Shown: positions 7,015 to 40,348, counted from the stretch's first letter. The stretch: DNA of 64,000 nt from an uncultured Acidimicrobiia bacterium (GCA_964370965.1 CAYJLW010000013.1:5696-69695), one strand, 5' to 3'. Program-made: numbers and translations. Notes: a model not told the origin generated them from the sequence alone.

Positions 7015-7440
7015 TTACCCCCTGACCACGTCCACGGACACGCAGCGGTCGAAGCGGACGGGCTGCCACTCCATGGGGGCGTACTGGAGGTGGTCGTAGC
7101 CGTCGACGAGGTGGAGCCACTTCACCATCCCGACCTCGACCTCGTTGGGGCCCTTGCCCCCCGGGGATCATGTAGTCCTCGTAGCCGTTGGAGACCGTCA
7201 GGGCGCCCGGACGCCACGTCGGGCTCGTGTGCAGGTTCACCCGAAAGTCGCCCACGTCGTTCCAGACCCCCGCGGTGTCGTCGGCGATGTCGAGAGCGGC
7301 GGCGTCGTCGGGGTGGATGAGCTGCGGACGGTGTCGGGGTGCCCACCGGTCGCTCCGGCCACCCGCTCCGGGCGGCACTCGCTGTCGAGGAGCCGCCGCA
7401 CCCGGGCCAGGAGCGGCTCCACGGTGACCGTCGTGCCGTC
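7015..7440 (-). pseudogene. C-terminal remnant of a molybdopterin bis-MGD oxidoreductase, paralogous to the 3' end of the 27563-30508 gene
   Basis: The minus-strand translation LIHPDDAAALDIADDTAGVWNDVGDFRVNLHTSPTWRPGALTVSNGYEDYMIPGG / KGPNEVEVGMVKWLHLVDGYDHLQYAPMEWQPVRFDRCVSVDVVRG* aligns with VVVHPEDAAREGIADHQPVRVSNEAGSFVVRAKLSPTQRPGGVTVYSGWDGHQFPGW...PSLVKHLGLAAGYGHLRYGPMEWQPVPCDRPVAVDIEAVVEG of the full-length gene. A +1 frameshift at the C6 run 7157-7162 separates the two segments. There is no N-terminal 800 aa, because the region upstream is the crtI-like promoter. Confidence 0.55.
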
Positions 7441-23821: not shown

Positions 23822-25627
23822 TCAGATGGGCATCCGATAACCGAAGAACTCCTGGTCCTCGTTGTACCCGCCCTGTCCGGCACCGAGGCGGTCGAAGCTT
23901 TCCACGAGCTCGATGGCCTCGATCCACTTGACCTGCTTGAAGCCGAGCTCGACCTCGTCGCGCAGCCGGAGTGGCGCGCCGTAGGACTCCCCGAGGGGCT
24001 CGCCGTTCATCTCGTAGGCGAGGATGGTGAGCTCGTGGTACATGTTCTCGATCTTGTGGCAGTCGTAGTAGCGCCCGGTGCCGGGGGTCTCGGGGCCTTC
24101 GGCGAAGGAGTAGAAGACGACCCAGCGGGCGCCGGGGAGCGGCTCGGCGAGGGCGAGGACGTCCGACATCGCGACGCCGCCCCACTTGGCGATCCCGGAC
24201 CAGCCCTGGATGCAGTAGTGCTGGGTGACCTGTTCCCGCTTGGGCATGGCCAGCAACTCGGAGTAGGAGAGCCTGATCGGGTTGGCCACCAGGCCCTCGA
24301 TCTTGAGCGTGTAGTCGGCCCAGCCGCCGGCCCGGAGGCGCCTGTACTCCTCGGAGTCGGGAAGGTGCCCGTTGGGCCAGAAGAAGGCCGAGACGTCCTT
24401 CTCGGAATAGGTGGCCCTGGGGTCCCACCACTCCATCAGCCCCTTGATCCAGCCCACCGTCGCGGCGCCGACCTTCTGCACGGTCCGGGGCCTGCGGATG
24501 GTGAACGGGGACGCCGCCGCCCCCCAGGCGGCGCCGACGGGCAACCCCCCCCCGTAGACGGCCAGCGCCCACCCCGAGTCCGTGTTCGTGCCGAGCGTGA
24601 TGTGGTTGAGGTTCCCGACCAGGCCGGTGGCAAAGACCATCACGGTGTGCATGACGACGAAGAACACCATCCATGCCAGCACGCCGAAGTGGATCGTGCG
24701 GGCCACTTGACGATTCAGCAGTCCGGCGCCGAAGCCGAACTTCCCGGCGATCGAAGGCGCCTGCAGGAGCCCCGTGACGAATGCCAACGGCGCCGCGACG
24801 AAGATCGTCAGGAAGTACGCGAGGATCTGCAACCCGTTGAAGCGGGTGAACCCGGTGTTGGCCGGGAAGTCCAGCGACGCGTACTGGATCGCCGCGGACA
24901 GGGCGTTGGGAAACACGTCAAGTGACCGAGGGACCAGCCGTTCCCACTGGCCGCCGGCGAACAGCAACACGAAGAAGATCACGCCGTTGACGAGCCACAA
25001 CAGGTCGAAGCTGAAGTGCCACCAGCGGGCCAGGCCGACGGAGTGGCGAAACCCGGGGATACCCAGCCACCTCGGCAACGCCACCGAGTCGTCCTTTGCC
25101 GTCCACACCTGGGTCGCCTCGGCCGGGTCCTGGCGATCGGCCGGGACAGGGCCCCGGATGCGCAACCATTCACGGCCCGGTCTGCTCCCCGAGTCCAGGC
25201 TCAGGCGGGGGTGGTCGGCCAGGATCTGCAACCCGGCCCGGATGATGAACATCATGAACAACAGGTTGAAGAAGTGCTGCCAGCGCAGCCACCACGGGAA
25301 CCCTCCGTCGACCTCCGGCACGTAGGACCCCGACGTGCCCGGGTACCGGCGGATGAAGTCCCGCATCCAGTCGTAGTGACGCAGCTGCTGGGCCACGGCG
25401 ATCGACAGCACCAACCCCACCGCGACCAACGGGACCAACCACAACGAACTGAGCCACCGCCGACCCACCCGCACGAACGGCACCGTGGCCTTCTGGTCCT
25501 CCATGCCCCCCGCCCAGTCCTCCACCACGATGCGCCCGTCTAACACGCCCTGACGTTCGTGCGGATCGAGCAGCCCCTCCAGACGCGCGGCCTCGGTCTC
25601 CGGATCCGGCTCGGGTGTACCCGTCAT
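23822..25627 (-). CDS. molybdopterin-dependent oxidoreductase (sulfite-oxidase/YedY-like catalytic domain) fused to an N-terminal polytopic membrane domain
   Basis: The N-terminal 400 aa have at least 6 hydrophobic helices. The C-terminal domain has the Moco-oxidoreductase block HYCIQGWSGIAKWGGV...GAPLRL. Confidence 0.75.
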   Translation of the reverse strand: MTGTPEPDPETEAARLEGLLDPHERQGVLDGRIVVEDWAGGMEDQKATVPFVRVGRRWLSSLWLVPLVAVGLVLSIAVAQQLRHYDWMRDFIRRYPGTSGSYVPEVDGGFPWWLRWQHFFNLLFMMFIIRAGLQILADHPRLSLDSGSRPGREWLRIRGPVPADRQDPAEATQVWTAKDDSVALPRWLGIPGFRHSVGLARWWHFSFDLLWLVNGVIFFVLLFAGGQWERLVPRSLDVFPNALSAAIQYASLDFPANTGFTRFNGLQILAYFLTIFVAAPLAFVTGLLQAPSIAGKFGFGAGLLNRQVARTIHFGVLAWMVFFVVMHTVMVFATGLVGNLNHITLGTNTDSGWALAVYGGGLPVGAAWGAAASPFTIRRPRTVQKVGAATVGWIKGLMEWWDPRATYSEKDVSAFFWPNGHLPDSEEYRRLRAGGWADYTLKIEGLVANPIRLSYSELLAMPKREQVTQHYCIQGWSGIAKWGGVAMSDVLALAEPLPGARWVVFYSFAEGPETPGTGRYYDCHKIENMYHELTILAYEMNGEPLGESYGAPLRLRDEVELGFKQVKWIEAIELVESFDRLGAGQGGYNEDQEFFGYRMPI

Positions 25628-27562: not shown

Positions 27563-30508
27563 GTGAGCGCACCAGACCCCTCCCGCCCCGGCGAAGCCCG
27601 CCACCGCTCCCGCTGGACATGGGACAGCGTGGCGTGGGGCAGCCACTGCGTGGACTGCTACCCGGGCAACTGCAGCTACCGCCTGTACGTGCGCGACGGC
27701 AAGGTCGTGCGCGAGGAGGTCGCCGGCGCGGGCGAGCCCTCCTCGGGCTCCCTCCCTGACGGCCTCCCCCTGGGATGCAACAAGGGGGCGGCCTGGAGCG
27801 CCCAGATCGAGGGCCCCGACCGCGTACGCTGGCCGATGCGCCGGGTGGGAGAGCGGGGCTCGGGCGCGTGGGAACGCCTGAGCTGGGACGACGCCCTCGA
27901 CGCCGTCGCCGACGTCCTCGTCGACACGATCGAGGCCGACGGACCCGGCGCCATCCTCCGGGAGGGGACACCCCAGGTCGGCGTCGGTCTCGCCCCGGAT
28001 CGTTTCGTACACCTCCTCGGCGGCACCGTCACTGACCTGAACGGGGCGATCAACGACTTCGCCAACGGCCTGCACATCACGTTCGGGAAGTCCAACCCGG
28101 TCTACTCGCCCCGCAGCGTCTTCGAAGCCGACGTCCTCCTCCTCTGGCACATCAACCCCGCCTACACGCTGATTCCCGTCTACCACTGGATGACCGAGGC
28201 CCGCTACCGGGGCGCCGAGGTCGTCCTCTTCTCCCCCGACGTGAACCCCACCCACAGCCACGTCGACTACGCGGTGCCCGTACGCTGGGGCGCCGACGCC
28301 GCGGTCGTCCTCGCCATGTGCCAGGTGGTCGTCGCCGAAGGCCTCGTCGACGAAGGCTTCGTCGCGACCCAGACCGACCTCTCGCTGCTCGTGCGCACCG
28401 ACACGGAGCGGTTCCTGCGCGAGAGCGACGTCGTCGCCGGCGGCCACGAGGAGCAGTTCTTCCACCTCGACCCCGGGCGGGGCGTCGTCCCCGCCGACCG
28501 CGCCAACCTCCTGTGCGACTACGAACCCGCTCTCCGGGGCCGGACGACGGTCACCCTCGCCGACGGCGGCGAGGTCGTCGTGGCGCCCCTGTTCGAGCGG
28601 GTGGCGTCCCTCCTCGCCGACTACACGCCCGAGGCCGCCGCCGAGGTGGCCGGCACGCACCCGGAGACGATCCGCACCGTCGCCCGCAAGGTGGCCGCCG
28701 GACGCACGTATGCCGCCATCGGAGGGGGCGCCGAGAAGCTCTACCACGGCGACCTCTTCCAGCGCTCCGCCCACCTCCTCCTCGGCCTCACCGGGAACTG
28801 GGGTCGCCCCGGTGCCGGGACGACGTCGTGGTCGGTGCCTCATGGCGACGGCTCGCTCCTCACGTCCGCGAAACGGACCCCCGGCCCCGAGGGCGCCGAA
28901 GTCGTCCTCGCCCTCCTCGAGAGCCTCGCCGCCGCCGTGAAGGCGTCGGACCCCACGATGTCCGACGAGCTCGCCGCCTTCGCCCTGCACCGGGGACCCC
29001 TCGCCGACAAGGCCATGGTGCCCCCGTTCTTCTTCTGGTATTGGCACGCCGGGTTCGCGGAGCGGCTCAACAACACCGCCTGGGGCGACCCCACGATGAA
29101 ACGCACCTATGACGAGTACGTCCAGGAGGCCCTCGACGAGGGCTGGTGGGCCGGCTTCGACCGCCCCGGCCCCGACGACACCCCCCGGGTCCTGATCGAG
29201 TGTGGAGGCAACATCCTGCGCCGCACCCGGGGCGGTGGTCGGCTCCTCCTCGAACACCTCTGGCCGAAGCTCGAGCTGATCGTCACCATCGACTTCCGCA
29301 TGTCCCTCACCGCCCTGCACTCCGACGTCGTCCTGCCCGCCGCCCAGCCCTACGAGAAGGTGGGCACGCACATGCCCTCCATGGAACTCACCCTCTCGGA
29401 CAGCGCCGTGGAACCCGTCGACGACGCGCTCCCCGAGTGGGAGATCTTCGCCGGTCTCTGCCGGGCCGTCGAGCGCCGCGCCGCCGCGCGGGGCCTCGAG
29501 CACTTCCGCCACTCGGGCGGCGCCCGGCGCCGCTACGACAAGCTCTGGGCGGCCTTCACCCTTAAAGGCGTCCTACGCACGACCGAGCACGTCGTGGACG
29601 AGACCATCCGGGACGCCGCCTACGCCGGGATCCTTCCCGAGGGCACGACGCTGGAGTCCCTGCGGGAGTCCGGGCGCATGAACTTCACCGGCTGGGGCGT
29701 GACCGCCTTCGGCCAGAGCCAGGCAGCGGACTGGCAGGACGACGTCCGGACCGTCGTCCCCTGGAGCAACCACGTCGAGAAGGGCGACCCCTACCCCACC
29801 CTCACCCGCCGGGCGCAGTTCCTCGTCGAGCACCCCTGGTTCGTGGAAGCGGGCGAGGACCTCCCCTGCCACAAGGAGCCCCCGCAGATGGGCGGCCCCG
29901 GCCGCTACTGGATGACCACCGGGCACAACCGCTGGTCGATCCACGCCATGAACATGGCGAACCCGTGGCTCATCCAGACCCACCGGGGCGAGCCCCACGT
30001 CGTCGTCCACCCCGAGGACGCCGCCCGCGAAGGCATCGCCGACCACCAGCCGGTGCGGGTCTCCAACGAGGCGGGCTCCTTCGTCGTGCGGGCGAAGCTC
30101 TCCCCCACCCAGCGCCCCGGCGGCGTCACCGTCTACTCGGGCTGGGACGGCCACCAGTTCCCGGGCTGGAACCCGCCCAGCGACGTCGAGCCCAGCCTCG
30201 TCAAGCACCTCGGACTCGCCGCCGGCTACGGCCACCTCCGCTACGGACCCATGGAGTGGCAGCCCGTCCCCTGCGACCGCCCCGTCGCCGTCGACATCGA
30301 GGCCGTCGTGGAGGGGGTGGGGGGGGGGGTGGCGCCCCCCCCCCCCCCCCGGGCCGGGGGGCCCGCGGCCCCCCCCCCCCCCCCCCCCCGCTCGCCCGGG
30401 GGCGCCGGCGGCACCACACCACCACACGACCGGGATGGCGGTGGCGCCGGAGACGAAGGTCCTTGCTCACGAGCGGCCAACCGTGTTCCACCGCCGTGGC
30501 ATAGATGA
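27563..30508 (+). CDS. molybdopterin bis-MGD oxidoreductase (DMSO-reductase superfamily) with N-terminal Cys-cluster motif; 3' end unresolved
   Basis: The N-terminal HCVDCYPGNCSYRLYVRDGKV...LGCNKG is an FeS-type Cys motif with atypical spacing. Size (about 920 aa) and the C-terminal molybdopterin-dinucleotide-binding domain fit the family. There is no twin-arginine signal. The reading frame continues through G/C homopolymer tracts at 30313-30400 as poly-Gly/Pro. The truncated paralog at 7015-7440 suggests the true stop lies near 30315. Confidence 0.75.
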   Translation: MSAPDPSRPGEARHRSRWTWDSVAWGSHCVDCYPGNCSYRLYVRDGKVVREEVAGAGEPSSGSLPDGLPLGCNKGAAWSAQIEGPDRVRWPMRRVGERGSGAWERLSWDDALDAVADVLVDTIEADGPGAILREGTPQVGVGLAPDRFVHLLGGTVTDLNGAINDFANGLHITFGKSNPVYSPRSVFEADVLLLWHINPAYTLIPVYHWMTEARYRGAEVVLFSPDVNPTHSHVDYAVPVRWGADAAVVLAMCQVVVAEGLVDEGFVATQTDLSLLVRTDTERFLRESDVVAGGHEEQFFHLDPGRGVVPADRANLLCDYEPALRGRTTVTLADGGEVVVAPLFERVASLLADYTPEAAAEVAGTHPETIRTVARKVAAGRTYAAIGGGAEKLYHGDLFQRSAHLLLGLTGNWGRPGAGTTSWSVPHGDGSLLTSAKRTPGPEGAEVVLALLESLAAAVKASDPTMSDELAAFALHRGPLADKAMVPPFFFWYWHAGFAERLNNTAWGDPTMKRTYDEYVQEALDEGWWAGFDRPGPDDTPRVLIECGGNILRRTRGGGRLLLEHLWPKLELIVTIDFRMSLTALHSDVVLPAAQPYEKVGTHMPSMELTLSDSAVEPVDDALPEWEIFAGLCRAVERRAAARGLEHFRHSGGARRRYDKLWAAFTLKGVLRTTEHVVDETIRDAAYAGILPEGTTLESLRESGRMNFTGWGVTAFGQSQAADWQDDVRTVVPWSNHVEKGDPYPTLTRRAQFLVEHPWFVEAGEDLPCHKEPPQMGGPGRYWMTTGHNRWSIHAMNMANPWLIQTHRGEPHVVVHPEDAAREGIADHQPVRVSNEAGSFVVRAKLSPTQRPGGVTVYSGWDGHQFPGWNPPSDVEPSLVKHLGLAAGYGHLRYGPMEWQPVPCDRPVAVDIEAVVEGVGGGVAPPPPPRAGGPAAPPPPPPRSPGGAGGTTPPHDRDGGGAGDEGPCSRAANRVPPPWHR
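30313..30400. repeat. G/C homopolymer tract cluster (G11, C16, C24 runs) at convergent gene ends
   Basis: Directly visible: gggggtgggggggggggtggcg, then C16, then gggccgggggg, then C about 24. Both flanking genes lack proper stop codons here. Confidence 0.8.
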
Positions 30509-30803
30509 GCCGGTCCGCCGGGTCGCCGGGGAACGAAGCCGGCAGGGCCGCGGCGATGTCCGCCACGGCCGGCGAGACCGCCACAGTGCGGATCTGCACC
30601 GCCAGGGACTCCAGCCAGGAGCGCACCGGAACCGACACGCGGATCCTGTCGTGGCGCGCCAACCACGCCAACTCGAACCACGTGATCCCACTCACAGCCA
30701 GCTCGTCGGCGCCGGCGACCGTCTCGGTGGCGGTCCGACTCAACCGCTCCGGCTCAGCAGACCACCACTGCACCACGTGCGTGTCGAGCAGGACGGTCGT
30801 CAC
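30440..30803 (-). CDS. vapC: PIN-domain toxin VapC (C-terminus runs into the homopolymer tract; end uncertain)
   Basis: GTG at 30803 forms a GTGA overlap with the antitoxin stop. VTTVLLDTHVVQWW gives the PIN motif with its N-terminal Asp. ...IYATAVEHGWPLVSKDLRLRR is the usual C-terminal block. Confidence 0.6.
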
Positions 30804-31027
30804 TGGAGTTCCCAATCGGCGCCGGTCGAGAAGAGGTCGTCCTCCTCCGCTGCGCTCACGGCCACTCCGGAGAGCCGTCCTCTGAGACCCGCGGGCCCTC
30901 CTGCCGGGACGAGGCGGGCGACCGGGCGTCCCCTCTTGGTGATGAGCACCTCCTCGCCGGCGGCCACCTCGTCGAGCAGGGCGAGGATGCGGGCCTTCAC
31001 CTCGGTGGCGGTCATCTGACGGGTCAT
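30800..31027 (-). CDS. Phd/YefM-family antitoxin
   Basis: MTATEVKARILALLDEVAAGEEVLITKRGRPVARLVP is the Phd/YefM signature. Confidence 0.75.
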   Translation of the reverse strand: MTRQMTATEVKARILALLDEVAAGEEVLITKRGRPVARLVPAGGPAGLRGRLSGVAVSAAEEDDLFSTGADWELQ

Positions 31028-31078
31028 GTGGTCATGTTAGTGGCCGCCACACATTCCAAGCCGCCGGACCGGCTGCGC

Positions 31079-31510
31079 CTACTCGTCGAGGGGGTGGGCC
31101 CAGCGCAGACCGGGGAACCGGGCGAAGCCCCGGTCGGCCGACACCCAGGTGCTGCCCTGCTCGACCGCGATCGCCGCCAGGTAGGCGTCCGGGACGACGT
31201 TGCCCTTCGCGCCGACCCGCCGGCAGAGGTCCGAGAAGATGCCCCAGTGCCGGTCGCCCGGCGCCACGGTCGTCGTGGCCGGGGAGGCACGGAGCGCATC
31301 CACGAAGTCCAGGGCGACACCGAGGGGGGTGGGCTCACGGAAGACGCGAGGATGGGTCACGACCCGAAGGAAGCCACTCGCCACGACGTCACTGAGCCCC
31401 AGCGGTTCGGGAGAGCGACGAGCCGCATCGAGCCACCCGCGGTAGGCCTCGTGGCCGAGCGACTCCGGCCGGTGGGCGAACACGAGGACGTTGACGTCAA
31501 CGCAACGCAT
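31079..31510 (-). CDS. vapC: PIN-domain toxin VapC
   Basis: MRCVDVNVLV (Asp5), VPDAYLAAIAV and WVSADRGF are PIN catalytic acidic positions. 143 aa. Confidence 0.8.
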   Translation of the reverse strand: MRCVDVNVLVFAHRPESLGHEAYRGWLDAARRSPEPLGLSDVVASGFLRVVTHPRVFREPTPLGVALDFVDALRASPATTTVAPGDRHWGIFSDLCRRVGAKGNVVPDAYLAAIAVEQGSTWVSADRGFARFPGLRWAHPLDE

Positions 31511-31754
31511 CGCCAGGCGTGCTCTCGTCCATCACGTCTGCGAGGGCGGCGTTGCTCGTGAGGTCGACGCCGGCCAGGACGCCGCTCCCCCCGAAGACGG
31601 GCAGGGGCGCCACCCCTTGTTCCGGTGCCCGCCGGGGCCGCAGGGCCTCCCGGACGGCGTCTTCGATGACCTCGCCGACGGTGCGACCGGTCTGGGCGGC
31701 GCGGGCCTTCACCCGCCGGTAGAGCTGGTCCTCGATCCGGATCGTGGTCCGCAT
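31497..31754 (-). CDS. vapB: ribbon-helix-helix (CopG/VapB-type) antitoxin
   Basis: MRTTIRIEDQLYRRVKARAAQTGRTVGEVIEDAVREAL is the RHH fold signature. Overlaps the vapC start by 14 nt. Confidence 0.7.
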   Translation of the reverse strand: MRTTIRIEDQLYRRVKARAAQTGRTVGEVIEDAVREALRPRRAPEQGVAPLPVFGGSGVLAGVDLTSNAALADVMDESTPGDALR

Positions 31755-31772
31755 GGTGCATCTTAGCACCAT
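31753..31772. promoter_or_regulatory. inverted repeat ATGGTGC-N6-GCACCAT overlapping the vapB start codon (likely autoregulatory operator)
   Basis: Perfect 7-bp arms, seen directly in the sequence. Confidence 0.45.
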
Positions 31773-36076: not shown

Positions 36077-36271
36077 CGGTGTCGGGCCGTCGTCCCGGCC
36101 CCGCCCAGAACCGGCCCCGCTCCCGGGCGGGCCAGGTGAGCGTGGTGGCGGTGAAGTTGTCGGTGCCCGGGGCGAATCCCTGCGTCTGATACCCGTCGGG
36201 ATCCCCCCCAAAACGCCCCGGGCTCCGGCTTCGGGGGGGGAGTTCCGCTCCCCCCCCGGACTCTCACGCCG

Positions 36272-40224: not shown

Positions 40225-40242
40225 CGTGGGCTCCTGTCGTGC

Positions 40243-40270
40243 GGTATTTCTAGTAACTAGTAGAAATACC
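40243..40270. promoter_or_regulatory. perfect inverted repeat GGTATTTCTA-gtaactag-TAGAAATACC (candidate operator)
   Basis: 10-bp perfect arms with an 8-bp spacer, AT-rich in a 70% GC genome, immediately upstream of the 39868-40224 operon start. Confidence 0.55.
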
Positions 40271-40348
40271 TCACGAGGTCAAGGGCGGCCGGCTCAGCGG
40301 CGCCGGGCACTGCGGCCCGCGTCGTGCACACGAGACGACGTGTGAGGC

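Follow-up and report, generated by a model that had tools for sequence, protein, structure and literature searches.

A stretch of 64,000 nucleotides (nt) from an uncultured Acidimicrobiia bacterium (GCA_964370965.1, CAYJLW010000013.1:5696-69695), referred to here as the window, contains long runs of G and C between two convergent genes, one encoding a molybdopterin oxidoreductase (the molybdoenzyme) and the other a VapC toxin. We conclude, with a probability of about 93%, that this G/C tract is an artefact of sequencing and assembly that has replaced a short and stable GC-rich hairpin, and that it is not a biological feature. An artefact had been the first choice of the first-pass annotation, which was made from the window's sequence alone, and the comparison with other assemblies of the same locus bears this out: ten assemblies have identical flanks and ten different inserts between them, and two of the ten carry the hairpin together with natural stop codons.

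The G/C tract differs between assemblies of one locus

The window carries G11 at 30319-30329, C16 at 30335-30350 and C21 at 30369-30389 (the number being the length of the run). The first two are in place as the first-pass annotation had given them, while the third, previously counted as C24, is C21. Outside the tract, the longest homopolymer in the whole 64 kilobases (kb) is 9. Counts of C runs in the same sequence fall about threefold with each extra base (37 of C6, 8 of C7, 2 of C8 and 1 of C9), and by extrapolation from these counts the number of C16 or C21 runs expected by chance is well below 1e-3. Shuffled sequences fold about as well as the tract (z of -0.6 and +0.1), which gives no structure signal of its own.

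The locus was anchored in other data by exact look-up of the 75-residue Phd/YefM antitoxin encoded next to VapC, which is present on at least 23 independently assembled contigs. These contigs come from SPAdes metagenome assemblies (ENA ERZ136929xx and ERZ1369304x-305x) and from one Logan assembly. Over window positions 20757-41027, a 76.7-kb contig with 32x coverage (L001) differs from the window in only two clusters, one at the tract and one at 24523-24549; its junction sequence, GAGGGGGTCGAGGGGCGGTAGCGCCCCTCGACCCCCGCTCGTCC, contains the perfect hairpin described below. A second exact look-up, with the 130-residue VapC as query, yielded ten junction-spanning assemblies, each from a different sample (L024-L033). 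The flanks of these ten and of the window are 100% identical over 263-343 nt on the left and 779 nt on the right.

Insert length was measured between the anchors GACATCGAGGCCGTCGTG and CACGACCGGGATGGCGGTGG, which are separated by 114 nt in the window (30311-30424) and by 71 nt in the clean version of the junction. The ten inserts are ten different sequences. L025 (32x) has 71 nt and a perfect hairpin, and L029 (20x) has 71 nt and the same hairpin apart from a single mismatch, an A>C in its left arm. The eight other assemblies, with coverage from 3.9x to 26.7x, have 76-151 nt in eight different arrangements of G runs and C runs. Their architectures include G21-CCG-C20, G21-CGCCG-C21, G11..C16..G6..C21 and G22-C17-G8-G7-C18-G17-C19, and the insert of L024 includes N10. 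The tract of the window is that of L030 (ERZ13692939, 9.5x) and is unlike those of the other nine assemblies.

These corrupted versions (the eight assemblies and the window) have a common orientation. The left flank is met by a G run in 9/9 of them and the right flank by a C run in 7/9, the exceptions being L024, with its N10, and L027, which is garbled. Other contigs do not cross the junction: two of them (L003 and L005) run into poly-C/poly-G junk there and end, the Logan contig L007 terminates 35 nt before it, and contig ends carry G/C stretches of over 100 nt.

Run lengths within the bridged contigs (the junctions of L024-L033) peak at 21 (6 of 27 spurious runs) and reach a maximum of 23. 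By default, SPAdes uses a k series of 21, 33 and 55, the smallest being 21, and the peak fits a single pass through a homopolymer node at this smallest k. A peak at about 21 nt is a possible fingerprint of the assembler's smallest k-mer and may help to flag the same artefact elsewhere.

The clean junction is a GC-rich hairpin

In its clean form the junction is a perfect 34-nt hairpin, GGGGGTCGAGGGGCG-GTAG-CGCCCCTCGACCCCC, with a stem of 15 base pairs (bp), 13 of them G-C, and a GTAG loop. It lies between the convergent genes, with the TAG stop codon of the molybdoenzyme in the loop and the TGA of VapC 21 nt beyond the right arm. The longest runs in this allele are only G5 and C5, at the ends of the stem. 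Folded as DNA, the hairpin has an energy of -22.1 kcal/mol (z = -7.5, with 0/200 shuffles as good); as RNA, the minimum-energy fold of either strand is built around it.

On neither strand is the stem followed by a T run, the sequence continuing with GCTCGTCC on the plus strand and TCCACGAC on the minus strand. A search around the junction (positions 9000-12000 of L001) found no T-tailed terminator and no sigma-70-like promoter. The hairpin arm is not repeated in the window, where there are 3 matches at two mismatches for 2.9 expected. High-GC Actinobacteria have stem-loops without a U tract that act in termination, the 'I-shaped' mycobacterial terminators. By analogy with these, the junction hairpin would most likely be a bidirectional stem-loop at the ends of the two transcripts. 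Points of resemblance are its GC-rich 15-bp stem, its position, across one stop codon and 21 nt away from the other, and its folding on both strands; it differs in belonging to no repeated family in the window. Compared with an intrinsic (rho-independent) terminator, it has the GC-rich stem-loop at a stop codon and lacks the U/T tract.

Natural ends of the molybdoenzyme and VapC

The first-pass annotation had stated that the tract swallows the 3' ends of both genes and leaves them without natural stops. Both genes do read through in the window and the end of the molybdoenzyme is overwritten, but VapC does not end inside the tract.

The open reading frame (ORF) of the molybdoenzyme in the window, 27563-30508, reads through the tract and encodes 981 residues. 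The natural protein has 922 residues and ends in ...AVVEGVEGR*; its final 4 codons and the TAG are overwritten in the window. In the cluster at 90% identity, 15 distinct molybdoenzyme sequences are identical through residue 916 (...AVDIEAVV) and have differing Gly/Pro tails beyond it, in all three downstream frames. The 981-residue form of the window is a member of this cluster (P0008, from NCBI); it is encoded on a deposited contig of 76,432 bp, from which the window therefore derives. The 922-residue form was found on 4 contigs.

Orthologues with 38-66% identity terminate 8-14 residues past a conserved WQPVPCDRP motif, as the 922-residue form does. A Gly/Pro tail was seen in no orthologue examined, nor in a fragment of a paralogue located elsewhere in the window. 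The earlier expectation that the enzyme ends at about the start of the tract holds, the true end being 4 codons past 30316, in agreement with the orthologues. Among species-representative genomes, the closest are Microthrixaceae/Acidimicrobiia from metagenomes, with 63-66% identity; a scan of the genome collection did not find the same species, the relatives in it having at most 66% identity.

The truncated paralogue that had been reported near 7015 is real. It is encoded on the minus strand at 7027-7267, corresponds to residues 833-912 of the molybdoenzyme at 41-57% identity, and has its own stop codon at about 7015-7017, some 12 residues past the WQPVPCDRP motif. G+C content is lower around it (0.61-0.65 across roughly 4-8 kb, the overall value being 0.71), and the fragment may have been left behind in a segment that was acquired or rearranged.

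A 130-residue VapC ending in ...VVVW is encoded on 19 contigs, and its coding sequence is intact in the window. VapC has no stop codon there because of a separate single-base error and not because of the tract: T>G at 30411, 21 nt outside the tract, changes TGA into TGC, and the frame stays open as far as 30201. This is one of three window-only substitutions near the tract that are absent from all ten assemblies (30395 T>C, 30411 T>G and 30423 G>C). Coordinates around the junction are collected in Table 1.

Table 1. Coordinates in the window of the G/C tract, the hairpin remnants and the adjacent genes
Feature	Position	Strand	Evidence and remarks
Molybdopterin oxidoreductase, reliable part of the coding sequence	27563..30318	+	Pfam PF00384, PF01568
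Left hairpin arm, surviving start GGGGGT	30313..30318		Window aligned with L025/L001
G/C tract considered spurious, 66 nt (G11, C16, G6, first 16 bases of C21)	30319..30384		Displaces the true 23 nt, CGAGGGGCGGTAGCGCCCCTCGA
Right hairpin arm, surviving end CCCCC	30385..30389		Window aligned with L025/L001
Window-only base C	30395		T in 8/10 aligned assemblies and in L003
Natural TGA stop codon of VapC	30411..30413	-	Plus strand TCA in 10/10 assemblies; window reads GCA
VapC PIN-domain toxin, coding sequence, 130 residues	30414..30803	-	PF01850; gene calls in L001 and L024-L033; P0016
Window-only base C	30423		G in 10/10 assemblies; affects the codon of the first Val in the VapC end VVVW
Phd/YefM-type antitoxin, 75 residues	30800..31027	-	PF02604; 4-nt overlap with VapC

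A second cluster of errors in the window

The other cluster of differences, at 24523-24549, consists of seven window-specific substitutions. Five are A>C and create a C9 run at 24545-24553. The cluster falls inside a gene (23822-25627, minus strand) for a 601-residue fusion of cytochrome b and molybdo-oxidoreductase, and converts the hydrophobic segment VWMAVVAALW into GGLPVGAAWG. The VWMAVVAALW version is found on 10 contigs, GGLPVGAAWG only on the window's own contig. In several assemblies the gene is cut short or split at this place, where the L002 contig also ends, and the cluster of the fusion protein contains 16 variants, several of them truncated into Gly/Pro junk. The true sequence here has GGC repeats, GGCGGCGGCG on the minus strand, and an inverted repeat of 7 bp. 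These substitutions show that the deposited consensus carries errors toward G/C at more than one place. Exact look-up of the window's own versions of the proteins, the 981-residue molybdoenzyme, the read-through VapC of 204 residues and the 601-residue variant, returned no record.

How the tract may have formed

Under the mechanism that we propose, short-read sequencing would fail reproducibly on entering the hairpin, from whichever side it is approached. Base calls would degrade to G on the strand being read, producing G runs at the left flank and C runs at the right flank: forward reads would turn to G just past ...GAGGGGGT, and reverse reads past the complement of GCTCG. SPAdes, a de Bruijn assembler, would then either break the contig or bridge the site through poly-G/poly-C k-mers that do not fix a length. 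The window's contig would contain one such bridge, in which 23 true nt have given way to 66 spurious ones, plus three miscalls in a low-quality flank. The observed orientation, G on the left and C on the right, is the one expected if reads of either strand turn to G after entry into the hairpin. At the level of the instrument, we infer that the cause is the dark-cycle poly-G of two-colour chemistry, dephasing induced by the hairpin, or both.

Inverted repeats and GGC motifs trigger consecutive miscalls in Illumina data, together with coverage gaps and assembly branching, and the resulting errors favour changes from A/T to G/C (Nakamura et al., 2011, PMC3141275). The junction resembles these sequence-specific error sites in several respects: a strong inverted repeat (perfect over 15 bp) in high-GC DNA, a fixed start of the errors, A/T to G/C changes, and gaps or contig ends at the site (the ends of L003 and L005, that of L007 35 nt away, and the N10 of L024). 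The cluster at 24523-24549 also has the GGC motifs and inverted repeat that act as triggers. The errors of Nakamura et al. are, however, mismatches in reads, whereas those described here are long homopolymer insertions in a consensus, longer than the sequence that they replace.

Instruments such as the NextSeq and NovaSeq call an absent signal as G (the fastp paper, PMC6129281). The junction shows the corresponding G on the read strand, as a G run on the left and a C run on the right, although this is not the only mode of error. Unlike two-colour poly-G, which usually occurs at read tails irrespective of position, the runs at the junction are fixed in place by the hairpin. No paper mentioning the run, study or assembly accessions was found in a full-text literature search.

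Several points weigh against this explanation. The whole evidence base consists of assemblies from one sample series made with a single assembler, and two scans of Joint Genome Institute (JGI) metagenome contigs, which used the left and right flanks as queries, found no independent copy of the locus. Coverage is not fully predictive, the junction being corrupted at 26.7x and 16.8x and clean at 20x. Finally, the nearby miscalls include A>C and T>C, which are not changes to G on the read strand, and a pure dark-cycle model is thus incomplete.

Alternative explanations

As a fallback, the first-pass annotation had considered a true hypermutable G/C tract in which slipped-strand mispairing would cause phase variation and switch the C-termini of both proteins. 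In its favour, the tract varies from sample to sample in length and in reading frame (tails occur in all three), the G5 and C5 at the stem ends could act as seeds, and a real hairpin with G8/C8 arms exists at 36233-36257. As at phase-variable contingency loci, long G/C homopolymers lie in or next to coding sequence and their lengths differ between data sets. The variants are nevertheless not length changes of a single run: 23 nt of unique sequence are replaced by differing G/C blocks, one of them with N10. No homopolymer allele is stable, and it is the architecture of the blocks that varies, not the copy number of one repeat. The clean allele itself has no run beyond G5 and C5. With flanks that are identical across all samples, about 8 complex events, each independent of the others, would have had to hit one site in a clonal population. 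Several contigs run out into over 100 nt of G/C junk and go no further. Contingency tracts are placed in promoters, at 5' ends or within coding sequence, where a change in length switches expression, whereas this site falls at the two 3' gene ends and beyond the stop codon of VapC. It lies past the last conserved residues of both proteins, so neither gene would be switched off. The clustering of run lengths at the assembler k of 21 also argues against phase variation, as does the loss of the VapC stop only in the window, by a point change outside the tract. We consider this explanation highly improbable, and the fallback is not supported.

A fixed insertion of 43 nt of G/C-rich sequence in the window's strain, the window and L030 being correct and L001 representing another strain, is very unlikely as well. 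It would account for the agreement between the window's NCBI record and L030 (ENA ERZ13692939), which share the tract. These two records probably derive from the reads of one sample, however: their contigs measure 76,432 and 75,582 bp, and their tracts are identical even though three flank bases differ. No other sample reproduces the tract, and each of the other corrupted assemblies differs. There are no linked single-nucleotide polymorphisms in more than 1 kb of flank, nor in 20 kb compared with L001. The window also has its unique flank miscalls and the second cluster of errors, where 10 contigs disagree with it.

The hairpin could in principle be a site where replication truly slips or switches template at high frequency, in which case the population would carry many G/C-tract alleles with variable Gly/Pro tails on the molybdoenzyme and the assemblies would sample them; we judge this extremely unlikely. 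Least probable of all is a chimeric join of unrelated contigs via shared poly-G k-mers: poly-G ends can mis-join contigs and several contigs end at the site, but we rejected this possibility on finding the same adjacency of molybdoenzyme and vapC in 10/10 spanning assemblies, clean ones included, and base composition is continuous across the site.

Other features of the region

VapC and its antitoxin belong to tandem toxin-antitoxin modules on the minus strand (30414-31772), in which an RHH antitoxin and PIN toxin (31079-31772) stand next to the Phd/YefM antitoxin and PIN toxin (30414-31027).

The hairpin at 36233-36257, GGGGGGGGAG-TTCCG-CTCCCCCCCC, has G8/C8 arms and a free energy as DNA of -12.6 kcal/mol. 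The window, L001 and L002 agree on its whole sequence, and L003, a low-coverage contig with three small differences nearby (36210, 36264 and 36324), agrees with them on the stem. This consistency across contigs indicates that short hairpins with G-run and C-run arms are real in this genome and are correctly assembled.

At 40237-40276 there is a near-perfect AT-rich palindrome, TCGTGCGGTATTTCTAGTA / TAGTAGAAATACCTCACGA, with 19-nt arms that are 89% complementary and a 2-nt spacer. A palindrome of this kind is unusual in DNA of 71% G+C and, judged by its sequence, looks like an operator site.

Implications for annotation

The significance of an artefact at this junction is one of quality control only and involves no new biology. 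The deposited contig misannotates at least three genes: the molybdoenzyme gains a false Gly/Pro tail of 59 residues, VapC is left without a stop codon, and the cytochrome-b/molybdo-oxidoreductase fusion has a transmembrane segment rewritten as GGLPVGAAWG. In the protein database, 15 spurious C-terminal variants of one enzyme arose in this way. When high-GC genomes are assembled from metagenomes, the artefact can usefully be flagged by G/C runs of about 21 nt beside a hairpin where a terminator is expected.

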